Part shown: positions 2,469-21,535 of the stretch, piece by piece
How the letters are laid out: each line of letters starts with the position of its first letter
Position numbering within the stretch: the first letter of the stretch is position 1
NCBI GenBank assembly: GCA_034431435.1
Contig: DAOUDG010000057.1
Coordinates: 23,955 to 87,954 of the forward strand
Length of the DNA: 64,000 nucleotides
Direction of reading: 5' to 3'
From: Anaerolineae bacterium
GTDB taxonomy: Bacteria; Chloroflexota; Anaerolineae; Epilineales; JAHCIE01
The notes under the pieces: generated by a model
What the model was told of the DNA's origin: nothing
What the model saw: only the letters and a program-made list of their open reading frames with translations
Database searches by the model: none
Translations under genes and position numbers: made by a program

Positions 2469-2481
2469 TTGGAGACTGTGC

Positions 2482-3474
2482 ATGTCAACCCCGCCCATCA
2501 CGGTGGAAGAGTTTCGCGCCACGGCCAGCGCTATCGAGCGTGAGGTCAGCCGTGTCATCGTCGGCCAGCAGCCCCTGATTCGCCAGCTCATGGTGACACT
2601 CCTGGGGGGGGGCCACGCCTTGTTGGAGGGCGCGCCCGGCCTCGGCAAGACCCTGCTGGTGCGCACCCTGGCCCAGGTTATCGACTGCTCGTTCAGCCGC
2701 GTCCAGTTCACCCCCGACCTGATGCCCGCCGACATCGTGGGCGGAACCATCCTGGTCCGCGACGATGCGGGCGAGCGCGCCTTTCGCTTCGAGCCGGGGC
2801 CGGTCTTTGCTAACTTGCTACTGGCCGACGAAATCAATCGCGCCCTGCCGCGCACCCAGTCGGCCCTGCTGGAGGCCATGCAGGAACGGCACGTGACCGT
2901 CGCCAAGACCACCCACGAGCTACCGCAGCCCTTCTTCGTCCTGGCGACCCAGAATCCGCTGGAGATGGAAGGTACGTATCCCCTGCCCGAGGCTCAACTC
3001 GACCGCTTCTTCTTCAAGATTGACGTACCCTATCCGAACCTCGAGGATCTGCTCGAAATCGCCGACCGGACCACGACGGCCCAGTCGATCATGCCGGTCA
3101 TCGTCGCCCACGCCGACACGATCCGCGCCATGCAGCTGCTGGCACGCCAGGTCCCCATCGCGGGCCACGTCACCGAGTTCGCGGCCCGCGTGCTCATGGC
3201 GACCCACCCTGAGGATTCGGGCGCGCCTGACGTTACGCGCCGCTTCGTGCGCTATGGGGCCAGCCCACGCGGCCTGCAGGCCATGATTCTAGGGGCGAAG
3301 GTCGCGGCCCTGCTCGACGGTCGCTACAATGTCAGCTTCGACGACATCGCCGCCGCCGCCCCGCCTGCCCTGCGCCACCGCGTCATCCTCAACTTTGAAG
3401 GCCAGGCTGAGGGTATTGCCACCGACCGTATCGTGGAGGCTGCCCTCAAAGCCCAGACGGCGCGCGCCCGCTAG
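2482..3474 (+). CDS. moxR: MoxR family AAA+ ATPase
   Basis: Walker [49 protein letters not shown]. Start taken at ATG 2482 after ggag. Confidence 0.93.
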
Positions 3475-3484
3475 GAGCGAGGCT

Positions 3485-4567
3485 ATGCGCCCTGTGCTGG
3501 CCGCTCTCCTGGTAGCGGCGGGTCTGTATGCGACGGCCGTTGCCGCCCACGCTCAGGGTGAAGGGTACGTCGTGCGCCCCGGTGACAGCGTGAGTCAGCT
3601 CGCCGCGCGCTGGGGCACGAGCGTCGAGGCCATTGCTCGCGCCAACAACCTTGCCAACCCCAACCTCATTCTGGTCGGCCAGCGTCTCATCGTTCCCAGC
3701 GTCGATGGGGGTGCATCGCCGGCTGCCTCGGCCGAGCCAACACCCTTGCCCACCCGCAACCCAACACTGCCCGCGCCCTTCGCCAGCGTGCGCCTGTCCC
3801 CGCAGCAGCCCATGCAGGGGCAGACGGTCAAGCTCGAAGTTGATCTTATCGAGCCGGCTCGGCTGACGGGACGGTTCCAGACCGAGACGCTGCGCTTTGC
3901 AGGCGACGGCCAGGGTGGACAATGGGCGCTCGTCGCCGTTGGCCCTCTCGCGGCTCTCGGCCAGCAGACCGTCTACGTCACGGCCACTACCGCATCCGGC
4001 ATGGTCACGCCGTTGCGTCTGCCCCTCGTCGTCCGCGACGGCCACTACCCGGTAGAGGATTTCTACCTCGATGCGCAGACGAGCCAGCTCCTCGCTCCCG
4101 AGCTGGTCGAGGGTGAGGCCCAACGCCTCGAAGCCATGTTCAAGACCGGCGAGTCGCTGCCACTGTGGATGGGACCGTTCGTCGCACCGGCTGATGGCCC
4201 CATCACCGCGAACTTCGGCGCGCGGCGCCGCTACAATGGTGGCGCCGCGCGCTACCACGAGGGCATCGACTACGGCCTGGCCACGGGGACGCTCGTGCGG
4301 GCCGCCGCCCACGGCGTTGTCGCTCTGGCCGAGCCGCTCGCTGTGCGCGGTAACACCGTCTTCATCGACCACGGTATGGGCGTCTACAGCGGCTACTTTC
4401 ACATGTCAGAGTTGCTGGTTGCACCGGGCCAGCGGGTCGAGCCGGGGCAGGTTATCGGGCGCGTTGGCAGTACGGGCCTGTCCACCGGCCCGCACCTGCA
4501 CTGGGAGATTCGCCTCCACGGCATCAACGTCTCGCCCTGGGAATGGGCCGAGCGCGAGTTTCCATAG
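3485..4567 (+). CDS. Secreted LysM + M23 family peptidoglycan metallopeptidase
   Basis: Signal peptide, LysM domain (YVVRPGDSVSQLAARWG...NNLANPNLILVGQRL), and M23 motifs HEGID and HLH. Confidence 0.9.
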   Translation: MRPVLAALLVAAGLYATAVAAHAQGEGYVVRPGDSVSQLAARWGTSVEAIARANNLANPNLILVGQRLIVPSVDGGASPAASAEPTPLPTRNPTLPAPFASVRLSPQQPMQGQTVKLEVDLIEPARLTGRFQTETLRFAGDGQGGQWALVAVGPLAALGQQTVYVTATTASGMVTPLRLPLVVRDGHYPVEDFYLDAQTSQLLAPELVEGEAQRLEAMFKTGESLPLWMGPFVAPADGPITANFGARRRYNGGAARYHEGIDYGLATGTLVRAAAHGVVALAEPLAVRGNTVFIDHGMGVYSGYFHMSELLVAPGQRVEPGQVIGRVGSTGLSTGPHLHWEIRLHGINVSPWEWAEREFP

Positions 4568-4580
4568 GTCACGCAATGGC

Positions 4581-4609
4581 TTGCCCGCGAGGCGCGGCGT
4601 TCGTATAAT
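4581..4609 (+). promoter_or_regulatory. sigma70-type promoter TTGCCC-N17-TATAAT
   Basis: Hexamers at 4581-4586 and 4604-4609, 17-bp spacer, upstream of the 4655 start. Confidence 0.6.
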
Positions 4610-4654
4610 ACGCTCTGGCCCGTCTGGGTCGATCCGCCACGGTGGAAGCCGAGT

Positions 4655-5968
4655 ATGACCGCTACCCAACTCACAGCCTTGCCCGTTGGCCGCGCCGCCG
4701 ACGTGGCCGCCGTGCGCCGCGCCCTCCAGCGCGGCGACCACTGTGCCATCGTCGGCATCAACAACATGGGCAAGACCGCCGTCCTGCGCGCGGTGGGCGA
4801 CACGGGGCCGGGCCGCCTGGCCGTCTACGTCGACTGCAACCGGGTGCTGGAATGGACCGAGCTGGGTTTCTATGAAGTAGTTATACGCGCCGCCCTGGAC
4901 GCGTTGCCGCCCGATAGCCCCGTCCGGTCCGAGGTGACCGAGGGCCACCGCACCCTCGTCGCGCCGACCACCATGATCGAGGACGCCTACGCCTTCGTGG
5001 CTGCCCTCGCCGCCATCATCCGCGTGTCGGGCCGCGTGGCTCTGCTCCTGGACGAGTTCGACACGCTGTTGCGGCGGCTGGATGCCCGCGTCTTTCTCAA
5101 TCTGCGTGGCCTGGCGGACCAGTATGGCGTGGCGCTGACCTACGTCACGGCGACAACCCATCGCCCCTCCGCCATCCGCGCCGATGTGGAGCCATTCTAC
5201 GAGCTGTTTGCCTATACCACCCGCTACCTGGCGCTCCTCGGTGTGGACGAGGCGCGGGCGCAGATGGCTGGTTATGCCGACGAGCGCGGTGTGAGCCTGG
5301 ACGACGACGACTACGGCTTTGCCTACGGCCAGGTTGGCGGCCATCCCGGCCTGTTGCGGGCGACGGTGTATCTGTTGGGGGAACTGGCAGACGCGCGCGG
5401 CGTGACTGGCGACGAGCGGCGGCGGCTGGCCTCGGCGGCGCTCAATCATGCTCCGAATGTGCAGGCCGAGTGCGCGGGCATCTGGAATGAATTGCTCGAC
5501 AGTGAGCGCGAGGCCCTGGCCGCCATTGTGGCCGGGCAGCCCGCGACTGAGCCGGCCAGCGGCTACCTTCTCGCCAAGCATGTAGTGCGCGCAGGTGAGC
5601 GGGGCCTGACGGTGTTCGCGCCGGTCTTCGCTGCCTTCGTTGCGCGCGAGCGCCGCATCGAGCCGCGGGGCGAGAGCCTGCGGGTCGACACCGAGCGCGG
5701 TGATGTTTTCGTGAACGGCGAACCTATCCCGCCGCTGACCGACCTGGAGTACCGTCTGCTGGCTCTGTTGAACGATCGCCGGGGCCAGATCGTGGACAAG
5801 TATCAGATTGTCGAGAAGGTGTGGGGGGAGTCGTATATCGACCAGGTAGATGATGACCGCATCGAGCGCCTCGTAGCCCGGGTGCGCGAGAAGGTCGAGC
5901 CAGACCCGCGCCAGCCGCGCTTCCTGACCACCGTCCGCGGGCGCGGCTACCGCCTCAAGGCAGAGTAG
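4655..5968 (+). CDS. P-loop ATPase domain + OmpR-type winged-helix transcriptional regulator
   Basis: Walker A-like GINNMGKT, Walker B LLLDEFD, and a C-terminal Trans_reg_C-like segment (LTDLEYRLL...VARVREKVEPDP..P.FLTTVRGRGY). Confidence 0.8.
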   Translation: MTATQLTALPVGRAADVAAVRRALQRGDHCAIVGINNMGKTAVLRAVGDTGPGRLAVYVDCNRVLEWTELGFYEVVIRAALDALPPDSPVRSEVTEGHRTLVAPTTMIEDAYAFVAALAAIIRVSGRVALLLDEFDTLLRRLDARVFLNLRGLADQYGVALTYVTATTHRPSAIRADVEPFYELFAYTTRYLALLGVDEARAQMAGYADERGVSLDDDDYGFAYGQVGGHPGLLRATVYLLGELADARGVTGDERRRLASAALNHAPNVQAECAGIWNELLDSEREALAAIVAGQPATEPASGYLLAKHVVRAGERGLTVFAPVFAAFVARERRIEPRGESLRVDTERGDVFVNGEPIPPLTDLEYRLLALLNDRRGQIVDKYQIVEKVWGESYIDQVDDDRIERLVARVREKVEPDPRQPRFLTTVRGRGYRLKAE

Positions 5969-9912: not shown

Positions 9913-10698
9913 CTACTGGGGCTTGTATGCCCGCACCTTGAGGCTGTACAGGCCGCCCAACTCACCGTCGTCGCTGTCGCTGGACCGCGCCAATGCCTCG
10001 ACCCTCTCAAACCCCGCTGCCGCCATCTTCGCCAGGTATTCGCTCTCCGGCAGCGCACCGGCGATGCAGCCCGCCCATAGCTCCAGGTCGCGCTTCACAT
10101 CGGCGGGCAGGTTGCCGGTCGTCACCATGTCCGATATCACCAGCCGACCGCCGGGGCGCAGCACACGCAGCGCCTCGCGAAACACGGCGTCCTTATCGGT
10201 CGATAGGTTGATAACGCAGTTCGAGATAATCAGGTCCACGCTGTCGGTGGCGACGGGCAGATCCTCGATGAAGCCCTGGCGAAACTCGACGTTGGCCACG
10301 GCCATGCGCGCGGCGGCGTCGCGCGCCCGCGTCAGCATAGCCGGCGTCATGTCGACACCGATGACGTGGCCGCTGGGGCCGACGTGGCGCGCCGTGATGA
10401 AACAGTCCAGCCCGCCGCCGCTGCCCAGGTCCAGCGCCGTCTCGCCCGGCTGAGGCTGGGCGAAGGCGATGGGGTTGCCGCAGCCGAGGCTGAACGTCGC
10501 CACCTCCTCGGCCAGCCCCGTCAATTCCTCGCTGCTGTAATACACTGTCCCCGACGTGGGGTCAGCGGGCGCGGCCTCACCGCAGCACGACGATGCGGAT
10601 GGTCCACAGCAACTCCCGCTCGTGGTCGCGGCCGTCGCGTACCGCTCGCGTACCGCCGCGCGTACAGTGTCCGTATCCATCAAGTTCAAGTCTGACAC
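9913..10698 (-). CDS. arsM: Arsenite S-adenosylmethionine methyltransferase
   Basis: N-terminal SCCG..SCCG, GCGNP, SAM motif DLGSGGG, SNCVINL, WAGCIAGA. GTG start 10698 after aaggagg. Confidence 0.92.
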   Translation of the reverse strand: MSDLNLMDTDTVRAAVRERYATAATTSGSCCGPSASSCCGEAAPADPTSGTVYYSSEELTGLAEEVATFSLGCGNPIAFAQPQPGETALDLGSGGGLDCFITARHVGPSGHVIGVDMTPAMLTRARDAAARMAVANVEFRQGFIEDLPVATDSVDLIISNCVINLSTDKDAVFREALRVLRPGGRLVISDMVTTGNLPADVKRDLELWAGCIAGALPESEYLAKMAAAGFERVEALARSSDSDDGELGGLYSLKVRAYKPQ

Positions 10699-10715
10699 AC
10701 TATCCTCCTTGCATC

Positions 10716-11153
10716 TCACGCATGACTGGTCTGGGCGACAAACTCGCCCAGCCAGATATCGATCTCGTCCCGTACCCGTCGAAACACGGCCAGTCGCGCC
10801 TCCGTGGCGCCGACAGCCGCGGCGGGGTCCTCGAAGCTGTGATGCAGCCGCTCGCCCGCGCCGGGGAACACAGGGCACGCCTCGTTGGCGTTGTCGCAGA
10901 CGGTGATGACATAGTCGAAGGGCTGATGGACGAACTCATGGATGCCCTTGCTGCGCGCCGTCGAGATGTCGATACCGCGCTCGGCCATGACTGCCACCGC
11001 CAGTGGGTTGAGGCCCTTCGGCTCCGTCCCCGCGCTGTAGACCTCGTACCCATCGCCGCCCCGCGCCCGCAGCAGCGCCTCCGCCATCTGTGACCGCGCC
11101 GAGTTCCCCGTGCACAGAATCAGCGCCCGTATTGGCCCATCAACCCTTGCCAT
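10716..11153 (-). CDS. arsC: Thioredoxin-type arsenate reductase (LMW-PTP fold)
   Basis: P-loop CTGNSARSQMAE, TVCD...CPVFPG, FEDPA. Start at ATG 11153 after ggag. Confidence 0.92.
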   Translation of the reverse strand: MARVDGPIRALILCTGNSARSQMAEALLRARGGDGYEVYSAGTEPKGLNPLAVAVMAERGIDISTARSKGIHEFVHQPFDYVITVCDNANEACPVFPGAGERLHHSFEDPAAAVGATEARLAVFRRVRDEIDIWLGEFVAQTSHA

Positions 11154-11189
11154 GCTGTCTCCATTGTCTACTCCCCAATCTCCGATCTC

Positions 11190-11379
11190 AGTCTCCATCA
11201 CCAGCGCCGACACTGGGCGCACCGACGTGAACTCCACCGACGCCAGCGCGGCGGTCGCTAGGGCCTCGCGCGCAACGGGGCGGAAGCCGAGGCGGGGAAG
11301 CATTCGCCAGCGGGGGCGGTGAGTAGATACACGCTCAGTGATGAGAGCCTTCACCCTGCGCAGGACGACATCCGAGCGA
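11190..11379 (-). pseudogene. Remnant of an ArsN2-like arsenic-resistance N-acetyltransferase (C-terminal half, 1-bp frameshift)
   Basis: One frame reads SVYLLTAPAGECFP and the adjacent frame continues RLGFRPVAREALATAALASVEFTSVRPVSALVM. Adding one base to the G4 run at 11294-11297 joins them into the YLLT...FPRLGF...SVEF...P.SA.VM pattern I recall for ArsN2. No N-terminal half is present. Confidence 0.6.
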
Positions 11380-11381
11380 GG

Positions 11382-11702
11382 TTAGCAGCACTCGCCAGCC
11401 GCCTCAAGCTCTTGGGTCAATGCTGTCACCTGCTCGCGCAGCCAGCGCAGCGTATCCTCATTGAGGCAGTAGCAACGCGCTGGCCCATCGACCGTGCCCG
11501 CCACGATGCCCGCCTCGCGCAGCACCTTGAGATGCTCGCTGACCGTCGATTGCGCCAGATTGCTGAAGACCACCAGATCGCCGGTGATGCACTGGGGATG
11601 CTCGGCCATATAGCGCACCATTTGCATCCGCAGCGGGTTGCCCAGGGCGCGAAAGAGGGCGACCAGACGCTCGCCATCGTCGGGGAGGGGAACCGTCTTC
11701 AT
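11382..11702 (-). CDS. arsR: ArsR/SmtB family repressor
   Basis: FRALGNPLRMQMV, LAQSTVSEHLKVLREAGIV, RCYC, C-terminal CC. First gene of the ars operon. Confidence 0.92.
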   Translation of the reverse strand: MKTVPLPDDGERLVALFRALGNPLRMQMVRYMAEHPQCITGDLVVFSNLAQSTVSEHLKVLREAGIVAGTVDGPARCYCLNEDTLRWLREQVTALTQELEAAGECC

Positions 11703-11713
11703 TGCCTGACTCC

Positions 11714-11765
11714 ATCGTAAAAAACCGATTATCGTCATTTTACGATAGAAGCGTGTGGTTGTCAA
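11714..11765 (-). promoter_or_regulatory. ars promoter TTGACA-N17-TAAAAT overlapped by an inverted-repeat operator
   Basis: Minus-strand -35 at 11765-11760 and -10 at 11742-11737. The inverted repeat atcgtaaaa (11714-11722) / ttttacgat (11738-11746) covers the -10. Confidence 0.75.
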
Positions 11766-11792: not shown

Positions 11793-12878
11793 CTACAGAA
11801 TCAGCATGGCGTCGCCGAAGCTGAAGAAGCGGTAGTCGCCCGCGATGGCGGCGTGGTAGGCGTCCCACATCAACTCGCGACCGGTGAAGGCCGCGACGAG
11901 CATCAGCAGCGTCGAGCGGGGCAGGTGAAAGTTAGTGATCATAGTGTCCACGGCGCGGAAGGTGAAGCCCGGCGTGATGAACAGCCGTGTCCAGCCGCTG
12001 TAGGCGGCGATAGGCGTGCGCGCGACGGGCGCGGTCAGCGCCGTGAAGTCGCGCGGCTGACCGGGGTCGATGTTGGCAGCGGCCAGCGCCGCCGACTCCA
12101 GCACTCGTACCGCCGTTGTGCCGACTGCCACCACTCGCCCACCGCCCGACCAGGTGGCGTTGATGCGCGCGGCGGTCGCTGCGCCCAACTCGGCCCACTC
12201 ACTGTGCATCACGTGCTGGCGAGCGTCCTCGACCTCGACGGGGCGGAATGTGTCCAGGCCCACGTGCAGCGTCACGAAGGCGAAGTCGACGCCTTGCTCG
12301 GCTAGGCGCGCAATGAGGGGCGGCGTGAAGTGCAGGCCCGCCGTAGGCGCGGCCGCCGAGCCGACGACGCGGTTGTAGACTGTCTGGTAGCGTTCGGGGT
12401 CAGCCAGCTTCGCGTGGATATAGGGGGGCAGGGGCGTCTCGCCCAGACGGTCGAGGAGTGGCTCGATGGGCGCAGCGAAGCGCACCAGTCGCCCGCCTGC
12501 CTCGGTCTCGCCAACGATCTCGGCCGTCGCCGCGCCGTCGCCCAGGACAAGCTGCGTCCCCGGCCGCAGGCGGTGGCCGCGCGCCAGCGTCTCCCACGTC
12601 ACGCCGTCCAGGGGCTTGAGGAGCAGAAGCTCCACCTGGCCGCCGCTGGCCTTGCGGGCGTGGAGGCGAGCCGGCCGCACGCGGCTGTCGTTGGCGACGA
12701 GCAGGTCGCCGGGCCGCAGGAAGGCGGGCAGGTCACGGAAGGTATGGTGGCTGAGCGCGCGGGTGGCGCGATCCACCACCAGCAGCCGTGACGAGTCGCG
12801 TGGCTCGATCGGCGTCTGGGCGATACGCTCGGTGGGCAGGTGGTAGTCGAAGTCGTGGGTGGCGAGGGGCGTAGTCAT
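11793..12878 (-). CDS. queA: tRNA preQ1(34) S-adenosylmethionine ribosyltransferase-isomerase
   Basis: DFDYHLP..RIAQTP, PLPPYI, YQTVY, GSAAAPTAGLHFT, LHVGLDTF, TNFHLPRSTLLML, YRFFSFGDAMLI. Confidence 0.97.
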   Translation of the reverse strand: MTTPLATHDFDYHLPTERIAQTPIEPRDSSRLLVVDRATRALSHHTFRDLPAFLRPGDLLVANDSRVRPARLHARKASGGQVELLLLKPLDGVTWETLARGHRLRPGTQLVLGDGAATAEIVGETEAGGRLVRFAAPIEPLLDRLGETPLPPYIHAKLADPERYQTVYNRVVGSAAAPTAGLHFTPPLIARLAEQGVDFAFVTLHVGLDTFRPVEVEDARQHVMHSEWAELGAATAARINATWSGGGRVVAVGTTAVRVLESAALAAANIDPGQPRDFTALTAPVARTPIAAYSGWTRLFITPGFTFRAVDTMITNFHLPRSTLLMLVAAFTGRELMWDAYHAAIAGDYRFFSFGDAMLIL

Positions 12879-12959
12879 GGGTCAGCCATATGGATGATAG
12901 GGTGGTCCGCAATCCGAACGAAAAGCATAGTCGCTGCCTCGATTACGGTCAACTTCCTG

Positions 12960-12989
12960 TTGACAGGGTCGCGGCGGGTGTGATACAAT
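12960..12989 (+). promoter_or_regulatory. sigma70-type promoter TTGACA-N18-TACAAT with extended TG
   Basis: -35 at 12960-12965, TG at 12981-12982, -10 at 12984-12989. Confidence 0.7.
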
Positions 12990-13020
12990 CTCGGCAACAC
13001 TCAGCAAGGAGGTGACGGCA

Positions 13021-13107
13021 ATGCGCTACGGCTTCATCATCGGCCTGTTCGTTGTTCCGGCCGGCGGTTCCAAGTCCCATAGCTGTAGTGCGCCTGTTCA
13101 CCATTAG
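13021..13107 (+). CDS. 28-aa leader ORF (MRYGFIIGLFVVPAGGSKSHSCSAPVHH), too short for the ORF track
   Basis: Near-perfect RBS aaggaggtga (13006-13015) directly after the promoter. ATG 13021, TAG 13105-13107. Confidence 0.7.
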   Translation: MRYGFIIGLFVVPAGGSKSHSCSAPVHH

Positions 13108-13122
13108 GTTTTGACCTATCCA

Positions 13123-13212
13123 CCGTGGGCGCGCTACCTGCCCACGGCGCTATCGTGCCTGTTGACCTCTTGGGTCTGCCGTGGGCCACCTGTCTGGCGC
13201 CACGGTATTTTT
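13123..13212 (+). terminator. Attenuator-like structure: alternative 1:2, 2:3 and 3:4 hairpins, the last followed by a T-tract
   Basis: Segment 1 ccgtgggc 13123-13130, segment 2 gcccacgg 13140-13147, segment 3 ccgtgggcca 13179-13188, segment 4 tggcgccacgg 13195-13205, then tattttt 13206-13212. Segment 2 is perfectly complementary to both segment 1 and segment 3. Confidence 0.7.
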
Positions 13213-13310
13213 GTGCCCGCGCTCCGTAACATCGCTAACAACCAGCGCGAGCATATCGACACGCTCATGCTGGTCTCAGCATCGCTGTCCTGACTTAGGA
13301 GGACACACGC

Positions 13311-14198
13311 ATGGTGCAAACACGACCGCTTTCTCTCAGCCAGGCCCTGCTGGCTGTCGAGCCGACCGGCCCCCTGGCCCTGGAGGTGCGGGAGGTCGTC
13401 AAGGGGTTCGACGGTCAGCGGACTGGTAGCTGGTGGCAGCGTGTGCGTGGCAAGGCCCCCGCTGCGGCAAGCCAGGTACGGGCTGTCGACCACGTCAGCT
13501 TCTCCGTCCGACGCGGCGAGATCTTCGGCATTCTTGGCCCCAACGGGTCGGGCAAGTCGACCCTGATTCGTCTCATCTCGACCCTGCTCATTCCCGACGC
13601 GGGTCAGATTACGGTCTTCGGTTACGATGTCGAGCGCGATGAGCTGCAGGTGAAGCGTATCATCAACCGCGTCTCCGTTGAGGCGGCCTTCTTCAAGAAG
13701 CTCAGCCCGATGGAGAACCTGCTGTACGCCGGCCGACTATACGGCCTGGATGGCGATACCATTCGCGAGCAGAGCGTCCAGATCCTGACACGGCTGGGGC
13801 TGGAGGGCAAGGCCCTCTACGCGCCGGTCGAGGAGATGTCGCGTGGTATGCAGCAGAAGGTTGCCATCGCGCGCGCGTTCCTGTCCTCGCCGACGCTACT
13901 GCTGCTGGACGAGCCAACGACTGGGCTGGACCCGCGCTCCAAGCGCGAGGTGCAGGCATTTGTCGAGGAATTGCGCGACAGCCACGACGCGACGGTCCTG
14001 CTGACCACTCACGACATGGATGAGGCCGAGGCGCTGTGCGAGCGCATCGCCATCATCGAGGGCGGCAAGATCGTGGCCCTCGATACCCCGGCCGGCCTGA
14101 AGGCCCTGGTGTCCCGCAACGGCCACGAGCCGACGCTGGAAGACGTCTTCATGGCTCTGACGGGCAAGACGCTGGACGACGACGAGGCGGTCGCCTGA
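13311..14198 (+). CDS. ABC exporter ATP-binding protein (DrrA/NodI-like)
   Basis: GPNGSGKST, MSRGMQQKVAIARA, LLLDEPTTGLDP, LTTHDMDEAE. RBS aggagg. Confidence 0.93.
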   Translation: MVQTRPLSLSQALLAVEPTGPLALEVREVVKGFDGQRTGSWWQRVRGKAPAAASQVRAVDHVSFSVRRGEIFGILGPNGSGKSTLIRLISTLLIPDAGQITVFGYDVERDELQVKRIINRVSVEAAFFKKLSPMENLLYAGRLYGLDGDTIREQSVQILTRLGLEGKALYAPVEEMSRGMQQKVAIARAFLSSPTLLLLDEPTTGLDPRSKREVQAFVEELRDSHDATVLLTTHDMDEAEALCERIAIIEGGKIVALDTPAGLKALVSRNGHEPTLEDVFMALTGKTLDDDEAVA

Positions 14199-14234
14199 GA
14201 GGGCGGCCGAGAAACGACCAACGAGGAGCCACGG

Positions 14235-15215
14235 ATGAGCACCGTACTGACTGGCCTGGAGACCCTCACTCTGCGCGCCCCGACGCCGGATGACTTGCCG
14301 GCCGTCTACGAGTTGATTGTCGCCTGCGACATCGCCGACTCTGACACGGTGGATCTGAGCCTCGACGACCTGCGCGATGAGTGGGACGAGCTGGACCTGG
14401 CGCGCGATGCCTGGGTCTTGGTCGACTCCGACGGCCGGGCCGTCGGCTACGGCGCTCTCTTCCACAGGTATCACGTGCGCCTGCACGCCGACGGCTATGT
14501 CCACCCCGATGCGCGGGGCCAGGGTATCGGCACGCGGCTGCAGGAACTGATGGAGGCACGGGCCAGGGAACATGTCCCTCTCGCGCCGCCAGATGCCCGC
14601 GTCGTCCTGCGCAATTCGACCAACGCTGGCGATGCACAGTCGCGGCGACTGCTAGAAGGTCGCGGCTATCAGCCTGTGCGCTACTTCTGGCGCATGGACA
14701 TCGACCTGACCGCGCCGCCGCCCGCGCCAGTGTGGCCGGCGGGCATCACGCTCCGCAACCTGGTGGTCGGGCAGAACGAGTTGGCCCTCTATACCGCCCT
14801 CACCGAGGCCTTCCGCGATCATTGGGGTCATCTGCCCGAGACGTTCGACAGCTGGCGGAAGCGCATCATCGACAAGCCTGACTTCGACCCCGGCCTGTCG
14901 TTCGTTGCCTTCGATGGCGACGAGGTGGCGGGCGCTGTGCGCGGCGGCTACCGAATGGAAGACGGCTGGGTGCAGACGTTGGGCGTGCGTCGTCCCTGGC
15001 GGCGGCGCGGCCTGGGTGAGGCCTTGCTGTTGCAGTCCTTTGGTGAGTTCTACCGTCGCGGCACACGCCGGGTTGGCCTGGGCGTCGACGCGGCCAGTCC
15101 TACCGGGGCGACGCGCCTCTATGAGCGCGCCGGGATGCGTGTCAGCCGCGAGTTCGCCGTCTACGAGATTGAGTTGCGGCCGGGCCGCGACCTGGAGGCT
15201 ATGAGCGAACTATGA
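14235..15215 (+). CDS. Tandem-domain GNAT acetyltransferase (MshD-like architecture)
   Basis: Two acetyl-CoA motif A segments (VHPDARGQGIG; VRRPWRRRGLG), and GVDAASPTGATRLYERAGM. Confidence 0.85.
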   Translation: MSTVLTGLETLTLRAPTPDDLPAVYELIVACDIADSDTVDLSLDDLRDEWDELDLARDAWVLVDSDGRAVGYGALFHRYHVRLHADGYVHPDARGQGIGTRLQELMEARAREHVPLAPPDARVVLRNSTNAGDAQSRRLLEGRGYQPVRYFWRMDIDLTAPPPAPVWPAGITLRNLVVGQNELALYTALTEAFRDHWGHLPETFDSWRKRIIDKPDFDPGLSFVAFDGDEVAGAVRGGYRMEDGWVQTLGVRRPWRRRGLGEALLLQSFGEFYRRGTRRVGLGVDAASPTGATRLYERAGMRVSREFAVYEIELRPGRDLEAMSEL

Positions 15216-16042
15216 CCCTAAACTCTGTCACGACTGAGGTACGCGCCTCATACGCATTTGTCGAACGCAACTTCAACCTGGTCAGGCGCTATTGGGGCTG
15301 GGAAGCCGTGTGGATCATGTACGGCATTGCCAACGCCCTGGCGGTGACCTACATTGGCGCGGGTATGGGCGCCCTCACCGGCCAGACCGTGGACACCGAT
15401 TTCCTGGTCATGTACCTGCTGATCGGTACGGTGGTGTGGCGCTACCTGTCCATCGTCTTCGACTCGCTGAGCGAGATGATCATGTGGGAGCGTTGGGAGG
15501 GGACCATTGAGTACACGTTCATGGCTCCCGTCAGCCGCCTGACCCACATGGTCGGCCAGACCATCTTTTCGGTGGTGTACGGTCTGATGCAGGCGGGGCT
15601 GATTCTGCTGGCGGTGGCCCTGTTCTTCCACATCGACCTGACGCACGCCAACTTCTATGGCGCAACAGCGGTGCTGATGGCGGGTAGTCTGTCCTTCATC
15701 GGCGTCGGCATCATCGCCGCTGTCTTGCCCATGCTCTACCCGGAGCGCGGCGCGCAGATGACTAACTTTGCCCAGGCCGTATTCCTGCTGGCGTCGGGTA
15801 TCTACTATCCTATCACGGTGCTGCCGGAGTGGATGCAGACGATCGCGCGCCTGTCGCCCGCGACCTATGCGTTGATTGGCATACGGGCTGCCCTGCTGGA
15901 AGGCGCATCGCTGGCGACCTTGACGCCTATCATCCTGTTGCTCATTGTGGTCGGGGTGGTCACCATCCCCGTCGGTGTGTTCATCTTCGGCTGGGGCGAG
16001 CGCTACGCCAAGCGCACCGGCAAGTTGAAGCGTAACGGCTAA
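15212..16042 (+). CDS. ABC-2 type permease
   Basis: About six hydrophobic segments, ERWEGTIEYTFMAP, SGIYYPITVLPEW..PATYA. ATGA overlap with the upstream GNAT. Confidence 0.9.
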   Translation: MTLNSVTTEVRASYAFVERNFNLVRRYWGWEAVWIMYGIANALAVTYIGAGMGALTGQTVDTDFLVMYLLIGTVVWRYLSIVFDSLSEMIMWERWEGTIEYTFMAPVSRLTHMVGQTIFSVVYGLMQAGLILLAVALFFHIDLTHANFYGATAVLMAGSLSFIGVGIIAAVLPMLYPERGAQMTNFAQAVFLLASGIYYPITVLPEWMQTIARLSPATYALIGIRAALLEGASLATLTPIILLLIVVGVVTIPVGVFIFGWGERYAKRTGKLKRNG

Positions 16043-16138: not shown

Positions 16139-17200
16139 ATGTTGTCTATCGAGACCTTTGACCCTAACCTGGCCAGCGACGACGACTGGCTGGCCTTGAA
16201 TACCTTCCACAACGCCTTGCGCGCCGAGGAGTGGCCGAACGACTTGCCGCTCCCCGCCGAGAAGACTCGCCTCGATATGACAGTCCGACCGCCACAGGAC
16301 CGTAGCTACGTCTGGATCGCGCGTGAGGGCGACGGGCGCATCATCGGCTGGGCGGGGCTATGGATGGAGGAGGCGGAGACCAATCAGCACCTGGGTTGGA
16401 CCACGGTGGGCATCTTGCCCGCCTGCCGGCGGCGTGGGATTGCCTCGCGTCTGCTGGCCGAGGTGGCGCCCGTCGCGCGCCAGCACGGGCGAACGATGCT
16501 GATGGGCGACACCGACGCCGACATACCGGCCGGCGCCGCGTTTGCCGAGGCGCTGGGCGCAACGCCAGGCCTGGCGACGAAGACGAATCAGTTGAACATC
16601 GCCGAGGTAGACCGGGCGATGCTACGGCAGTGGATTCAGCGCGCCCACGAGCGCGCCGAGGGTTTCAGCCTGGGTGTGTGGGAGGGTGCGGCTCCCGACG
16701 AGGACATCGACAACTTTGCCTATCTGCTGGAGTGGTCGTCCAACGACGAACCGCGCGGCGACCTGGCGATCGAGCACGAGACGTTCACCGTGCAGCAGAT
16801 GCGCGACTGGGAAGCCGCACTCCGCGCGCGGCGCTTCGAGCAGTGGATCGCCTGGGTTCGCGACGAGGCGACCGGCCGCCTGGCGGGCTACAGCACGGTA
16901 CGCTGGAACCCCTTTGAGCCGGACCGCCTGTGGCAGGCGGGCACAGGGGTGCTGCGCGAGTATCGTAACAAGGGCCTGGGCCGCTGGCTCAAGGCGGCTA
17001 TGCTGGAGAAGGTGCTGCGCGAGCGGCCAAGCGTGCGGGTCATCCGCACCGGCAACGCCGACACCAACGCGCCGATGCTAAAGATCAACCACGAGCTGGG
17101 CTTCAAGCCGGCCAAGAGCTGGATGCTGTATCAGATCACCATCGATGACCTGGAGAAGACCCTGAGCGCGCACGTACACGCCACGCTGGTGATGGTGTAG
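16139..17200 (+). CDS. Tandem-domain GNAT acetyltransferase, paralog 1 of 5
   Basis: NQHL, ILPACRRRGIA, EPRGDL, TGVLREYRNKGLGRWLKAAML, RTGNADTNAPMLKINHELGF. Confidence 0.9.
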   Translation: MLSIETFDPNLASDDDWLALNTFHNALRAEEWPNDLPLPAEKTRLDMTVRPPQDRSYVWIAREGDGRIIGWAGLWMEEAETNQHLGWTTVGILPACRRRGIASRLLAEVAPVARQHGRTMLMGDTDADIPAGAAFAEALGATPGLATKTNQLNIAEVDRAMLRQWIQRAHERAEGFSLGVWEGAAPDEDIDNFAYLLEWSSNDEPRGDLAIEHETFTVQQMRDWEAALRARRFEQWIAWVRDEATGRLAGYSTVRWNPFEPDRLWQAGTGVLREYRNKGLGRWLKAAMLEKVLRERPSVRVIRTGNADTNAPMLKINHELGFKPAKSWMLYQITIDDLEKTLSAHVHATLVMV

Positions 17201-17213
17201 GAAGGACACGACC

Positions 17214-18272
17214 ATGCAGATCCGAGACTTCGATCCCAAGGGCGCGGGCGACGACGAGATTCGCGCCATCCATGCCTTGCAGAGTCGCCTGCACGCCGAG
17301 ACCTGGCCCGAGGACAATCCGCTGCCCGTGGAGGACACTCTGAGCTGGCTGCGTCACATGCCGGCGATGATCGACTTCCGCGGCTGGGCCGTGTGGGACG
17401 ACGCTGGCGAGAGCGTCATCGCCCGCGCCGACTTTGAGACGTGGCGCACCGACGAGAACCAGCATCTGGGCGAGTTCTCCATCGGCGTCCTGCCGGCGAG
17501 TCGCCGGCAGGGACTCGCAACGCAGCTACTTGGCCCGATCGTCGACGAGGCGAAGGCCCGCAAGCGCCGCCTGCTCCACACTTGGGCCGATGCGGAGAAC
17601 GAGGGGGCGACCGGCTTTCTCACCTGGCTGGGGGCGCGGCCCGGCCTGACGATGACGAACAACCAGCTCGTCCTGGCCGAGGTTGACCGCGTGTTGATGC
17701 GCCAGTGGATCGAGCGCGGCGAGGCGAAGGCGCAGGGCTTTCGGCTGGAGCTCATCGACGGCCCGTACCCTGAGGCCGATATTCAGGCCATCTCGGACCT
17801 GTTCCGCGTGATGAACGACGCGCCGCGTGGCAGCCTGGACGTCGAGGACGAGGAGTACAAGGTCGAGCACATACGCCAGTGGGAAGGGACCATGATCAAG
17901 CGCGGCCTGGAACGCTGGCGCATGCAGGCGCGTCACATCGAGAGCGGCGAGCTGGCCGGCTTCACCGAGGTCGTGTGGAACCCGTACCGCCCCGACATCC
18001 TCCAGCAGTGGGGTACGGGCGTCAAGCCCACGTTCCGCGGCCTGGGCCTGGGTCGCTGGCTGAAGGCAGCTATGTTGGAGCAGGTGCTGCGCGAGCGTCC
18101 TAGCGTGCGCGTCATCCGCACCGGCAACGCCACCAGCAACGGGCCGATGCTGAAGATTAACTTCGACATGGGCTTCAAGCCCTACAAGGCCTTCCAGGTC
18201 TGGGAGGTCGAGACCGAGCAGGTGGCCCGTGTCCTGACCGAGAAGGAGGCCGTGCCCGCCCTTGCCTGGTAA
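17214..18272 (+). CDS. Tandem-domain GNAT acetyltransferase, paralog 2 of 5
   Basis: NQHL, VLPASRRQGLA, NDAPRGSL, TGVKPTFRGLGLGRWLKAAML, RTGNATSNGPMLKINFDMGF. Confidence 0.9.
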   Translation: MQIRDFDPKGAGDDEIRAIHALQSRLHAETWPEDNPLPVEDTLSWLRHMPAMIDFRGWAVWDDAGESVIARADFETWRTDENQHLGEFSIGVLPASRRQGLATQLLGPIVDEAKARKRRLLHTWADAENEGATGFLTWLGARPGLTMTNNQLVLAEVDRVLMRQWIERGEAKAQGFRLELIDGPYPEADIQAISDLFRVMNDAPRGSLDVEDEEYKVEHIRQWEGTMIKRGLERWRMQARHIESGELAGFTEVVWNPYRPDILQQWGTGVKPTFRGLGLGRWLKAAMLEQVLRERPSVRVIRTGNATSNGPMLKINFDMGFKPYKAFQVWEVETEQVARVLTEKEAVPALAW

Positions 18273-18287
18273 GGCGGGCTTTCCATA

Positions 18288-18319
18288 GGGGAGGGGGAAC
18301 GGTCGCGTTCCCCCTCCCC
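18288..18319. repeat. Perfect 13-bp GC-rich hairpin between GNAT paralogs 2 and 3
   Basis: ggggagggggaac (18288-18300) / gttccccctcccc (18307-18319). Confidence 0.55.
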
Positions 18320-18333
18320 CAGGAGTTTATACC

Positions 18334-19410
18334 ATGTATCTGCGCCCCTTCGACTTGAAGACCGCGACGATGAAGGATTGGGAAGCCCTGCACCGCTTCG
18401 ACGCCACCATTCACGCCGAGTTCTGGGGCGACCGCCCGCATCCGCCTTTCGAGCAGTTCGTGCGTGACACCCGTCACGAAGCGCCTTTGTGGGAGACCCG
18501 CCGCTATGCCATGTGGAACGGTCAGGGCGATATCGTTGGCCTGGCCGCCATGTGGATCAGCCGCACGGGCCGCAACAAGCATCTGATGGAAGCCACCATC
18601 GACGTGCTGCCGGAGTGGCGGCGGCAGGGTATCGCCCGCTGGTTGCTGGCCCCCATCGTTACCGTGGCCTGCCGCCACGGCATCCGCCTGCTGAAGGGCG
18701 TCACGAGCAGCGCGTCGCCGGCCGGCGAGGCGTTCATGCGCCGGCTGGGCGGCAAACCGGCCATGACCACATCGACCAACGTTCTGGCCATCGCCGACGT
18801 CGATCGCGCCCTGCTGCGCCGCTGGATCGAGACGGGCGAGACAAGCGCGGCCGACTTCGCCCTCGAAGAGTTGGTTGGCCCGTACCCCGACGACTGGCTG
18901 GGCAGCATCTCGGCTCTGTACGACGCGGCCAACGACGCCCCGCGCGGTGACCTGGACGCCGAGGACGAGCGACGCTCGCCGGAGTTGCTGCGCGAGATGG
19001 AGGCGGTCTCTCTGGCGCGGGGCGACGAGCGCTGGACGATGATCGCGCGCCATCGGCCGACTGGTGAGATCGCCGGGTTCACGGAGACGCACTGGAACGC
19101 GGTCCAGCCGGAGGGCGTGAGCCAGGCGTGGACCGTTGTCCTACCGCGCTACCGAGGCCACGGCCTGGGCCGCTGGCTGAAGGCGGCCATGCTGGAGAAG
19201 GTGTTGCGCCAGCGCCTAACGGTGCAGTGGATCAGCACCGGCAACGCTGACAGTAACGCGCCCATGCTGCGCATCAACTACGAGTTGGGCTTCAAGCCGT
19301 ATCGGTCCTGGATATTCTGGCAGCTTGAGGTAGGGCAGGCGCAGGCCTACCTGGCCGAGAAGGCGGCCGAGCCGCTGGCCCTCGAAGCGCCCGACTCCGT
19401 CCCCGCCTAG
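18334..19410 (+). CDS. Tandem-domain GNAT acetyltransferase, paralog 3 of 5
   Basis: NKHL, VLPEWRRQGIA, NDAPRGDL, VLPRYRGHGLGRWLKAAML, TGNADSNAPMLRINYELGF. Confidence 0.9.
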   Translation: MYLRPFDLKTATMKDWEALHRFDATIHAEFWGDRPHPPFEQFVRDTRHEAPLWETRRYAMWNGQGDIVGLAAMWISRTGRNKHLMEATIDVLPEWRRQGIARWLLAPIVTVACRHGIRLLKGVTSSASPAGEAFMRRLGGKPAMTTSTNVLAIADVDRALLRRWIETGETSAADFALEELVGPYPDDWLGSISALYDAANDAPRGDLDAEDERRSPELLREMEAVSLARGDERWTMIARHRPTGEIAGFTETHWNAVQPEGVSQAWTVVLPRYRGHGLGRWLKAAMLEKVLRQRLTVQWISTGNADSNAPMLRINYELGFKPYRSWIFWQLEVGQAQAYLAEKAAEPLALEAPDSVPA

Positions 19411-19427
19411 CCCGCACAGGAGTTGCG

Positions 19428-20492
19428 ATGCACATCAAATCTTTTGATCCGCAGACGGCGAGCGACACCGAGTGGAGCGCGCTGAACGTCTTCGACAATC
19501 GGAACGAGGCTGAGTTGTGGCCCGATGACCCGCCGGTGTCTGTGACCCGCACCCGTCGCCGCGCGCTGCGCCCCGAGTTTCTGGTGCAGGAGTATTGGGC
19601 GGCGTGGAACGAGGGTGAGACGGAGGTCATGGGCCTGGCGGATGCTCGCTACTGGCTTGCCGAGCACAACCAGCATCTGGTCATGTTTTCCCTGGCTGTC
19701 TTGCCCGCGTTTCGCTGCCAGGGTATTGGTCGCCAGTTCCTGGCCTGCATCGTGGACTTTGCACGCCGCGCCGGTCGCACCGACTTGCTGGACTGGGCCG
19801 CGACAGGGGCGGCGGGCGCGACGGGCTTCGCCCGCGCCGTGGGCGCGAAGGAAGGTATTCTCTCCAGCACCAACCAGCTCGACCTGCGCGACCTGGACCC
19901 GGCGTTGATGCGGGCGTGGCTGGCCCGCGCGCCAGAGCGGGCGTCGGGCTTCGAACTCCGCTACTGGGATGATGGCTACCCCGAAGAGGCCTACGCCGAG
20001 ATGGTCCACGTGCTGGACGCCATGAACGACGCGCCCCGCGATGAGATCTTCGAGGATGAGAAGTGGAACGAGGCGCAGTTGCGCGCTTACGACACGCTGA
20101 TTAAGAGCCAGGGCACGCTACGCTGGACGGCCTATGTTCGCGAGAAGAGCAGCGGCCGCATTGCCGGCTACTCCGAGGTGTTCTGGAATGCGGATCGCCC
20201 AACCATCCTGCATCAAGGCGATACCGGCGTGCTGCCCGCCTACCGTAATCGCGGCCTGGGCCGCTGGCTGAAGGCGGCCATGATTCTGCGCATCCTGGCT
20301 GAGCGGCCTGACGTGCGGTTTGTCCGCACCGGCAACGCCGATTCCAACGTGCCGATGTTGGGTATCAACTATACGATGGGCTTCCAGCCCTATCGGTCGT
20401 GGACGGGCTGGCAGTTGACCGTTGACCAGGCCGAACAATACCTTCTGTCGCGGGGTGTCAGCGTGGATGCGCTCGCACCCCTGGAGGCGTGA
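19428..20492 (+). CDS. Tandem-domain GNAT acetyltransferase, paralog 4 of 5
   Basis: NQHL, VLPAFRCQGIG, NDAPRD, TGVLPAYRNRGLGRWLKAAMI, RTGNADSNVPMLGINYTMGF. Confidence 0.9.
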   Translation: MHIKSFDPQTASDTEWSALNVFDNRNEAELWPDDPPVSVTRTRRRALRPEFLVQEYWAAWNEGETEVMGLADARYWLAEHNQHLVMFSLAVLPAFRCQGIGRQFLACIVDFARRAGRTDLLDWAATGAAGATGFARAVGAKEGILSSTNQLDLRDLDPALMRAWLARAPERASGFELRYWDDGYPEEAYAEMVHVLDAMNDAPRDEIFEDEKWNEAQLRAYDTLIKSQGTLRWTAYVREKSSGRIAGYSEVFWNADRPTILHQGDTGVLPAYRNRGLGRWLKAAMILRILAERPDVRFVRTGNADSNVPMLGINYTMGFQPYRSWTGWQLTVDQAEQYLLSRGVSVDALAPLEA

Positions 20493-21535
20493 TGCGCATC
20501 CTGCCCTTCGACCCCATCACGGCGAGCGCCCACGAATGGGAAGCTGCCTTCGCGCTGGAGCGGCAGAACGCGGCCGAGTTCAACCCCGATGATACCCCAC
20601 TGACCCTGGAGCAGCTTCGCGACCGCTGGCTCAACGAGCCGTCCTTTACTCGCATCCAGCGCTGGCTGGCCTGGGATGACGGGGGCGAGACGGTCTGGGC
20701 GCGCGCCCTTCTGAGACACCACACCACCGCCGAGAATCAGCACCTCGCCGACATGTGGGTCTACGTCGCGCCGGAGTGGCGGCGGCAAGGCCTCGGCGGT
20801 GCGATGCTGCAACCCATCGTCGACGGCGCGCAGGCCGCCGACCGCGGCCTGCTGCGAACCTGGACCCAGAGCATCGCGCCAGCCGGCGAGGCCTTCATGC
20901 GCGTCCTCGGCGCGCACAAGGCGCTGGAGACCTCGGAGAACGTGTTGGACATGGCCGACCTGGACCTGGACCTGATGCGCAAATGGGTCCAGCGCGCCCA
21001 GGAGCGAGCAGCGGGCTACCGGCTGGAGTTTGTCGAGGGCTGGTTCCCTGAGGCGGACCTGCCCGACATCGCCGCTGTCGTCGGCTCCCTCAACGATGCG
21101 CCACGCGGCGAGTTGCAGGTGGAGGACGATGTTCACACGGCGGACACCGTGCGCGCCTGGGAAGCGTCGATTCTGGGGCGGGGTGACAACATCTGGAGCG
21201 TGTTCGCCCGCGAGCCGCAGGTGGGGCGCGTCGTGGGTTGGACGGAGGTTGTCATCGACCCCCACAACCCCCATCGCCTCTACCAGGGCGGGACCGGTGT
21301 GCTGCGCGCGCATCGTAACCTGGGGTTGGGTCGCTGGCTGAAGGCGGCCATGGCCCTCAAGGTGGCAGAGCAGTTGCCCCAGGTCAGGTCGATTCGCACC
21401 GGCAACGCCGACGCCAACGCGCCCATGCTCAGCATCAACACCCGGATGGGCTTCCGCCCCGCCATCGCCGAGGCCGTCTGGCAGCTCGACCGCGAGCAGG
21501 CGCGAGCTTATCTGGCCTCGGCTCGAATGGCCTAG
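20489..21535 (+). CDS. Tandem-domain GNAT acetyltransferase, paralog 5 of 5
   Basis: NQHL, VAPEWRRQGLG, NDAPRGEL, TGVLRAHRNLGLGRWLKAAMA, RTGNADANAPMLSINTRMGF. GTGA overlap with paralog 4. Confidence 0.9.
   Translation: MMRILPFDPITASAHEWEAAFALERQNAAEFNPDDTPLTLEQLRDRWLNEPSFTRIQRWLAWDDGGETVWARALLRHHTTAENQHLADMWVYVAPEWRRQGLGGAMLQPIVDGAQAADRGLLRTWTQSIAPAGEAFMRVLGAHKALETSENVLDMADLDLDLMRKWVQRAQERAAGYRLEFVEGWFPEADLPDIAAVVGSLNDAPRGELQVEDDVHTADTVRAWEASILGRGDNIWSVFAREPQVGRVVGWTEVVIDPHNPHRLYQGGTGVLRAHRNLGLGRWLKAAMALKVAEQLPQVRSIRTGNADANAPMLSINTRMGFRPAIAEAVWQLDREQARAYLASARMA

Follow-up and report, generated by a model that had tools for sequence, protein, structure and literature searches.

A probable ribosome-mediated transcription attenuator family upstream of exporter and tandem-GNAT genes in the class Anaerolineae

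Introduction

How could the translation of a short open reading frame decide whether the exporter genes that follow it are transcribed? This question is raised by a leader located at positions 12960 to 13310 of a 64,000-nucleotide stretch of DNA from an Anaerolineae bacterium (GenBank assembly GCA_034431435.1, contig DAOUDG010000057.1, positions 23,955 to 87,954), hereafter called the window, whose numbering is used throughout. The leader precedes genes encoding an ABC-2-type exporter and GNAT acetyltransferases. A first-pass annotation, made from the sequence of the window alone, had recognized in it a strong promoter, a ribosome-binding site, an upstream open reading frame (uORF) of 28 codons and four pairing segments (1 to 4), and had proposed that a ribosome on the uORF selects between alternative hairpins. 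All these elements are present, with coordinates that we have refined by about 1 nt. Here, we compared the leader with those of related loci. Our analysis indicates that it is likely a ribosome-mediated (leader-peptide) transcription attenuator of the his/trp type for a DrrAB-like exporter and tandem-GNAT operon, and that it belongs to a family conserved in the class Anaerolineae. The way in which the uORF is connected to the hairpins appears to differ from that originally proposed.

Results

Pairing segments of the leader in the window

All features of the leader and of the operon lie on the plus strand. The uORF (13021–13107) consists of 28 codons followed by TAG, encodes MRYGFIIGLFVVPAGGSKSHSCSAPVHH and is preceded, 8 nt 5' of its ATG, by the Shine-Dalgarno (SD) site AAGGAGG (13006–13012). 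It is not called as a gene in the public gene calls of the window contig and of close relatives. Downstream of the uORF, the motif CCGTGGGC occurs at 13123–13130 and 13179–13186, and its complement GCCCACGG at 13140–13147. As the first-pass annotation had noticed, segment 2 (GCCCACGGCG, 13140–13149) can pair with either segment 1 or segment 3. In the first case it forms the 3' arm of hairpin 1:2 (13123–13147; 9 bp, 7-nt loop, −16.7 kcal/mol), which is homologous to a terminator, T1, of the relatives described below; in the second it pairs with 13177–13186 over 10 bp (−21.7 kcal/mol). The 3:4 hairpin (13177–13207; 12 bp with one bulge) is indeed followed by five T, and together they constitute the putative terminator T2 (13177–13212, −20.2 kcal/mol), made of segment 3 (13177–13188), segment 4 (13195–13207) and TTTTT (13208–13212). 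A simple terminator scan of 10 kb did not list this hairpin, which we attribute to the bulge in its stem.

Three copies of CCGTGGGC or GCCCACGG are thus found within 64 nt, compared with 16 in the whole window on both strands. The possibility that CCGTGGGC is a dispersed repeat was considered and rejected, there being 16 copies in 128 kb (both strands of the window). Another pair of copies, at 40870/40903, is located in an apparent Ala/Gly-rich coding repeat and is accompanied by neither a hairpin nor a terminator.

Two additional segments lie in the uORF itself. Segment 0 (seg0, GTAGTGCGCCT, 13085–13095), a conserved block that lies within the last 7 codons of the uORF, is the candidate 5' strand of an antiterminator. 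It can form 11 bp (−21.1 kcal/mol) with segment 1' (GGGCGCGCTAC, 13127–13137), which comprises the upper 5' arm and the loop of hairpin 1. The second of these segments, segment −1 (13023–13033), overlaps the start region of the uORF and can pair with 13081–13091 over ~12 bp (−19.3 kcal/mol). Folding also predicts a small hairpin, P0 (TAGGT-TTTG-ACCTA, 13105–13118), which contains the stop codon and lies within the region closed off by the 0:1' helix. Many relatives show, by eye, comparable small hairpins that coincide with the stop codon or directly follow it.

The leader as a whole (12995–13315) folds at −133.9 kcal/mol, compared with −113.3 ± 5.0 kcal/mol for dinucleotide shuffles (z = −4.1), and its minimum free energy (MFE) structure combines the pairings −1:0, 1:2 and 3:4. 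When the window leader is folded without segment −1, the 0:1' helix forms, and a transcript ending at 13187 gives the 2:3 pairing as well. Blocking 13080–13119, which mimics a ribosome at the stop codon, yields 1:2 and 3:4.

The full-leader MFE structure contains one more pairing, between the spacer 13152–13176 and 13290–13315, in which CCTCTT (13166–13171) faces the SD and start-codon region of the ATPase gene. In this model structure, the pairing could add an extra layer of translational control. In the closest relative (L083, ATPase 94% identical), CCTCTT is altered to CCATCT, which makes the conservation of this pairing doubtful.

Conservation of the leader in Anaerolineae

The comparison set consisted of 80 orthologous ABC-2 loci of Chloroflexota from a genome collection (ATPase identity 58–74%), to which we added five closer relatives fetched individually (79–94%). 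Searching with the window leader, nhmmer produced weak but repeated matches directly upstream of the ATPase gene in other loci. A covariance model, R1, seeded with an alignment of 49 leaders (A2), matched at full length (E ≤ 3e-8) in 56 of the 80 loci and in the five close relatives, and 13 of the 56 positive loci are outside the seed. All R1 matches are located on the strand of the gene and upstream of the ATPase, with a single site in the 64-kb window. The search for conservation upstream of homologous ABC genes, which the first-pass annotation had put forward as a check, has therefore been successful: ~60 loci share the uORF, the two hairpins and the complementarity between segments 2 and 3.

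These loci share the same layout, in which a promoter and an SD site are followed by a uORF of ~31 codons, an invariant ..TGCGCC.. block near the uORF end, the GC-rich hairpin T1 with a U-tract, the second hairpin T2 with a U-tract, and the ATPase gene. The promoter of the window (12960–12989) is of the sigma-70 type, with TTGACA, an 18-nt spacer carrying an extended −10 TG, and TACAAT (11 of 12 matches in a promoter scan). Both its −35 and −10 boxes are kept in the close relatives, and a TTGACA with a TAnAnT −10 likewise aligns with it in three loci of the comparison set (L021, L025 and L037). The 10-kb scan contains five promoter-like sites, against 1.0 ± 1.1 in shuffles.

The carriers are labelled Anaerolineae, Anaerolineales, Thermoflexales and Aggregatilineaceae, and include the cultured Anaerolinea thermolimosa IMO-1 (L063, element at 3698–3900 of this locus). 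No full-length R1 match was obtained in the loci labelled Ktedonobacterales, Limnocylindria, Phototrophicaceae, Acetothermia and Fraserbacteria, and two Chloroflexaceae loci gave a partial match that covers the hairpin only.

Most of the 49 analysed loci have an SD-like site in front of the uORF, whose median length is 31 codons (26–35 codons in 44 of the 49). The stop codon is located 1–32 nt past the start of seg0 in all 49 loci, regardless of the frame used; the chosen frame had to reach seg0, such that the upper bound of this interval is the informative one. By comparison, alternative frames have a stop in this interval in 22 of 98 cases and are closed before seg0 in 62 of 98. Hairpin 1 is followed by a run of at least four T in 38 of the 49 loci, whereas the longest T run at this place is 1–2 in the window and in its relatives L083 and L085.

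Several loci display peculiarities of their own. On the 6.5-kb contig JAXGOK010000066.1 (L037), the leader, ATPase and permease are present twice, at 915–3137 and 3358–5580, as a perfect inverted duplication that most likely results from a palindromic misassembly and is not biological. Two loci (L088, 1290–1500; L089, 1340–1500) contain an extra 100–150 nt between T2 and the ATPase start codon that is not present in the window. This insert carries an inverted repeat (..AAGCAATCTCGC.. / ..GATTGCTTCGCT..) and may correspond to an inserted small element or to additional structure. In two others (L005, 1242–1364; L008, 3189–3295), the attenuator lies 600–700 nt upstream of the ATPase match, instead of the usual 40–280 nt, possibly with another small gene or an insertion in between.

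Covariation of the alternative pairings

The GCGCC core of seg0 is invariant in the 49 aligned loci. In nearly all of them, the best partner of seg0 forms a contiguous duplex of 10–11 bp, 30–46 nt downstream, and the variable positions change on both strands: CGT-AGT is accompanied by ..CTAC, CGG-AGT by ..CTCC, CGC-AGT by ..CTGCG, ATT by AAT and AGC by GCT. The energy of the 0:1' duplex within its own locus (−16.3 kcal/mol) was not reached in any of 10,000 permutations of the partners among loci (−13.0 ± 0.33 kcal/mol). These compensatory changes and permutation tests supply the covariation that the first-pass annotation had suggested looking for. Since loop lengths vary between clades, the MAFFT alignment A2 is unusable directly for counting 0:1' pairs. 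We thus relied on these alignment-free energies together with A3, in which gap-free blocks are concatenated and positioned by the invariant CC of the T1 arm, independently of the hypothesis. On A3, where register shifts in some clades lower the figures, 74% of the cells pair, versus 68% after column shuffling and 35–54% in slid registers, and the covariation score is 0.217 versus 0.121 in shuffled columns (0 of 500).

The two other alternative pairings behave similarly. For −1:0, the own-locus energy is −13.3 kcal/mol and the permuted one −12.0 ± 0.24 kcal/mol (0 of 10,000); in 35 of 49 loci, seg0 finds its best upstream partner between positions −22 and +18 relative to the first codon of the uORF. 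The usual sequence of this partner is GGCGCA, located between SD and AUG; its counterpart in the window is GCGCTACGGCT. As for 2:3, all 49 loci have a stretch of 7–10 bp (mostly 9–10 bp) over which the T1 3' arm can pair with the T2 5' arm, with an own-locus energy of −19.1 kcal/mol against −15.5 ± 0.45 kcal/mol for permuted partners (0 of 10,000). The arm variants CCGTGGG, CCACGGG and CCGCGGG switch jointly in both hairpins, and the T1 stem itself covaries at two pairs (GC 29/AU 19 and CG 27/UA 21).

Could such pairings operate without a ribosome, in a riboswitch or a protein-binding leader, or could they be plain tandem terminators that end a short transcript? Conserved alternative pairings are also typical of riboswitches, and tandem terminators behind a strong promoter could define a small RNA. 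However, searches of Rfam 15 gave no relevant match at E ≤ 10 in window positions 12000–14500 and no match at the gathering score in 15 related loci. The sequence is variable outside the paired segments, with no conserved structured core that would resemble an aptamer, and covariation of 0:1' and 2:3 is not expected of plain terminators. Moreover, the end of the SD-preceded reading frame tracks seg0 in every locus and segment −1 is placed at its start region, which points to the ribosome as the effector. We therefore regard a ribosome-independent switch, or the absence of any switch, as unlikely.

The same data bear on the coupling between uORF and hairpins. In the four-segment model of the first-pass annotation, a ribosome at or near the uORF stop masks segment 1, which lets 2:3 form and blocks 3:4, so that translation to the end, or a stall there, turns the operon on. 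Segments 1 to 4 and the alternatives 1:2, 2:3 and 3:4 are real and conserved, and the stop codon of the window does end 15 nt before segment 1, as had been claimed. Among the relatives, however, the distance between the stop codon and hairpin 1 varies from ~14 to 28 nt (by eye), which, in most loci, places segment 1 beyond the reach of a terminating ribosome; masking of this segment at the stop codon cannot be a general mechanism. In addition, the spacer is often filled by a small hairpin, and the model leaves unexplained the most conserved block of the leader (seg0), the covarying 0:1' pairing and segment −1. The idea of a ribosome-dependent attenuator with a translated leader and conserved alternative hairpins is thus strongly supported, but its four-segment coupling, which missed seg0 and segment −1, is incomplete and probably wrong; it retains little credibility in our opinion. 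The true link between the uORF and the hairpins seems to be a fifth segment, seg0, with which a sixth segment at the uORF start also pairs.

A peptide motif or an RNA constraint?

Most uORFs end with P-C/S-R-S/I-A-P-x-x-x-stop, the stop codon being three codons after Ala-Pro in 32 of 49 leaders. Such a tail could stall the ribosome by nascent-peptide arrest, in the style of SecM, TnaC or RAPP and possibly with a small-molecule cofactor, and the stall would then set the RNA fold. The Arg-x-Ala-Pro core resembles the known arrest cores R-A-P-P and R-A-G-P. However, no frame is fixed over the block. About 12 loci with a good SD site read it in another frame (..SECAC-stop, ..SYCACCP-stop), in what is the only SD-preceded uORF there, and in three of these (L016, L029 and L035) the uORF is closed by a TAG that belongs to the block. 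A start codon is missing from the 'RSAP' frame in five loci. Ala is invariably encoded by GCG, and the variable positions covary with the partner RNA strand. One locus (L071) maintains the pairing through G-U pairs but codes V-S in place of A-P, and the window and L083 have TGT (Cys; codon 13084–13086) where Arg CGT is near-invariant. The latter codon, just before seg0, remains CGT in the other close relatives L085 and L087–L089, and its change to Cys is neutral under the RNA model. We rejected the arrest-peptide reading in view of the other-frame loci, the stops inside the block and the covarying RNA partner, and consider it highly improbable. The conserved 'R-S-A-P-x-x-x-stop' tail rather appears to be a by-product of the RNA constraint, since ~12 loci read the block in another frame, three of them stopping inside it. 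This observation calls for caution, as the striking conservation of a 'peptide motif' in the last codons of a uORF can reflect an RNA helix instead of an arrest peptide.

Alternatively, the peptide might itself be functional, as a bacteriocin or other precursor of a ribosomally synthesized and post-translationally modified peptide (RiPP), or as a transporter-associated micropeptide; leaky terminators would set the stoichiometry between peptide and enzymes, the GNATs would modify the product and the pump would export it. The succession of a small open reading frame, an ABC transporter and acyltransferases resembles that of some RiPP clusters, the window peptide contains Gly-Gly, and a terminator after a precursor gene is common. 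Against this scenario, the peptide sequence turns over rapidly: its N-terminal two-thirds evolve fast and with indels, even between loci whose ATPases are 89–94% identical. The frame over the block differs between loci, a scan of four leader peptides against NCBIfam matched no family, and the uORF is also present in loci without a GNAT match within the fetched flank. Finally, what is conserved is conserved at the RNA level, with compensatory changes. A functional peptide thus seems very improbable.

The downstream operon and its surroundings

The leader sits between the divergent gene queA (11793–12878, minus strand) and the ABC ATPase gene (13311–14198), the first gene downstream, whose SD site is AGGAGG (13297–13302). 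This gene encodes an ABC-2-type, DrrA-like ATP-binding protein (Pfam ABC_tran, 1.6e-31), for which the top NCBIfam match is the drrA subfamily, at a score under the cutoff of that family. It is followed by a gene for a tandem-GNAT acetyltransferase (GNAT1, 14235–15215; PDB 3tt2 at 5.5e-78) and by that of an ABC-2, DrrB-like permease (15212–16042, identified by family matches). Five consecutive paralogous tandem-GNAT genes, also identified by family matches, form an array 3' of the permease gene (16139–21535; 353, 352, 358, 354 and 348 aa). They are 39–42% identical to GNAT2, and GNAT1 is the sixth member of the set. GNAT2 resembles PDB 2wpw, which is ORF14, the tandem GNAT of the clavulanic acid cluster. 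Neither the structure matches (PDB 3tt2, 7q3a and 2wpw ORF14) nor a literature search yielded a substrate for these GNATs. In other loci, the gap between ATPase and permease ranges from ~30 nt to ~2.5 kb, and tandem GNATs are often located 3' of the permease gene. Judging from the gene content, the pump and the tandem GNATs would be effectors of the resistance or detoxification type.

Upstream of queA, on the minus strand (9913–11765), are genes for an ArsR-type helix-turn-helix protein, a low-molecular-weight phosphatase (ArsC-like) and an S-adenosylmethionine (SAM) methyltransferase. They are accompanied by a near-consensus promoter, TTGACA-17-TAAAAT, at 11765–11737 on the same strand. This group looks like an arsenic-resistance operon.

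Discussion

A proposed six-segment attenuator

In sequence, the leader shows every defining feature of leader-peptide attenuators that can be tested at this level. Its open reading frame has its own ribosome-binding site, a terminator, at the sequence level, stands before the first gene, and the conserved antiterminator excludes it. The open reading frame overlaps one strand of the alternative structures, namely seg0, with segment −1 at its start region. We propose that six segments would form two exclusive sets of pairings, −1:0, 1:2 and 3:4 in the OFF state and 0:1' and 2:3 in the ON state. In the absence of a ribosome, segment −1 would hold seg0, hairpins 1:2 and 3:4 would form, and transcription would end at 13212. 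A ribosome that has reached the end of the uORF would cover seg0 while RNA polymerase makes segments 1 and 2, and termination would again follow. By contrast, a ribosome stalled at the start codon, where it would mask segment −1, or in the body of the uORF would keep segment −1 off seg0. The free seg0 could then capture 1', the liberated segment 2 would capture segment 3, neither terminator would form and the operon would be transcribed. Segment −1 would thus act as an anti-antiterminator, and hairpin 1:2 would be T1 in most relatives and a plain hairpin in the window. With the coupling placed on seg0, the logic is reversed compared with that of the first-pass annotation: a ribosome at the uORF end would favour termination and an earlier stall read-through. 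The pairings and their conservation have been documented above; from them we infer the polarity of the switch and the role of the ribosome.

Several points weigh against this model. That T1 and T2 terminate transcription, and that the ribosome influences them, is deduced from sequence, and the permutation tests ignore phylogenetic relatedness. In the commonest layout, the footprint of a ribosome whose A site holds the stop codon is expected to extend over no more than the 3' half of seg0 (GCGCC). When the window transcript is folded at equilibrium through segment 4, 3:4 wins over 2:3 even with 0:1' in place, such that only kinetic effects could account for read-through at T2. In the clade of the window, L083 and L085, the U-tract after hairpin 1:2 has been lost; there, this hairpin would act as an anti-antiterminator only, leaving T2 as the sole terminator. 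The window copy may be a simplified derivative of an ancestral two-terminator design. Lastly, neither a regulatory codon run nor a conserved peptide points to the signal, and the R/K-x-R/K motif discussed below is not present in the window uORF, the uORFs of the window, L083 and L085 being devoid of R-x-R.

What could the signal be?

The first-pass annotation had remarked that the leader peptide contains no run of a single residue, and we found no codon or residue run in the window peptide or in the relatives, whose composition is unremarkable. The leader is therefore not an amino-acid attenuator, and the regulated genes are not biosynthetic either. Given that the effector genes are of the resistance or detoxification type, and by analogy with the bmrB leader (see below), our working guess is that the inducing signal could be translation stress or antibiotics, a tentative suggestion that we hold with less than even confidence. 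An R/K-x-R/K motif at codons 3–15 (mostly 8–14) is present in 22 of 48 distinct uORFs, against 8.8 ± 2.4 in shuffled peptides, a statistic that is inflated by relatedness. Motifs of this kind recall those of macrolide-dependent stalling.

It is tempting to speculate further that the leader senses a broad range of ribosome-targeting antibiotics and is ancestral to the class Anaerolineae. Ribosomes halted at the start codon or further inside the uORF would free seg0, and two antiterminators would defeat two terminators. R/K-x-R/K could provide a macrolide-type stall site in about half of the lineages, and the genes thus induced, those of a DrrAB-like pump and of a growing series of drug-modifying tandem GNATs, would make up an island of intrinsic resistance. 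This extended scenario is doubtful, more so than the general suggestion of translation stress or antibiotics.

Whatever the signal, this work describes a regulatory RNA family with clear covariation and a class-wide distribution in the Chloroflexota (Anaerolineae), a phylum that abounds in sediments, digesters and wastewater; the family is absent from Rfam. A covariance model is ready for it, as are a testable mechanism and a cultured host, A. thermolimosa IMO-1. Our analysis also flags the conserved ABC-2 pump and tandem-GNAT module as one that might be switched on when translation falters, which offers a lead to the substrate of the module and to antibiotic responses that environmental bacteria may possess intrinsically.

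Comparison with known leaders

The element is an unreported member of a well-known class of switches, real, widespread and tidy in its mechanism but not surprising in kind. Our literature search found no description of such a leader or attenuator in Chloroflexi or Anaerolineae, and we know of no described attenuator from Chloroflexota. When tested against amino-acid attenuators, arrest-peptide leaders, Rfam families and RiPP precursors, the Anaerolineae leader fitted none of them. The architecture offers two modest twists: a single antiterminator domino would disable two tandem terminators, and the putative anti-antiterminator is located inside the initiation region of the uORF itself.

The his leader of Salmonella and E. 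coli reportedly has six segments, A to F, in which A:B, C:D and E:F compete with B:C and D:E, as Johnston et al. are said to have described in 1980. The pairings −1:0, 1:2 and 3:4, on the one hand, and 0:1' and 2:3, on the other, map one-to-one onto this scheme, and both leaders would terminate with either full or no translation. However, the his leader uses seven consecutive His codons as its sensor, whereas the Anaerolineae leader has no codon run. Moreover, in most relatives its middle hairpin (1:2) doubles as a terminator, and the genes under control encode an exporter and acetyltransferases rather than biosynthetic enzymes. The trpL leader of E. coli has four segments, one terminator and a Trp-codon sensor, and displays superattenuation in the absence of translation. 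It shares with the Anaerolineae leader the leader peptide, the 1:2 / 2:3 / 3:4 logic and, presumably, the ability of a ribosome at the leader end to favour the terminator, but lacks the two additional segments that link the uORF to the hairpins in Anaerolineae.

The leaders of vmlR (PMC9226507) and msrD (bioRxiv 10.1101/2021.11.29.470318) are uORF attenuators in which drug-stalled ribosomes have been proposed or shown to block the terminator. They too have a short uORF upstream of a resistance-type gene. In contrast, these genes encode ABC-F ribosome-protection factors and their leaders depend on specific nascent-peptide and drug contexts, whereas the Anaerolineae leader peptide is poorly conserved and R/K-x-R/K is confined to 22 of 48 uORFs, that of the window not being among them.

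The bmrB-bmrCD leader of Bacillus subtilis is subject to ribosome-mediated transcription attenuation, and induction requires translation of the leader (Reilman et al., 2014; PMC4191407). This leader induces the BmrCD exporter upon exposure to protein-synthesis inhibitors (PMC4191407). Like the Anaerolineae leader, it is placed immediately before ABC exporter genes and consists of a small translated reading frame with alternative stem-loops and an intrinsic terminator. The two leaders have no sequence relationship, and BmrCD is a heterodimeric type-I ABC exporter, as opposed to the ABC-2 (DrrAB-like) exporter with GNATs found here. The bmrB leader has three stem-loops and its terminator lies inside the reading frame, while the Anaerolineae leader has six segments and, in most relatives, two terminators 3' of the uORF. 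Induction by antibiotics, demonstrated for bmrCD, is what we hypothesize for the Anaerolineae leader, of which bmrB is the closest functional precedent.

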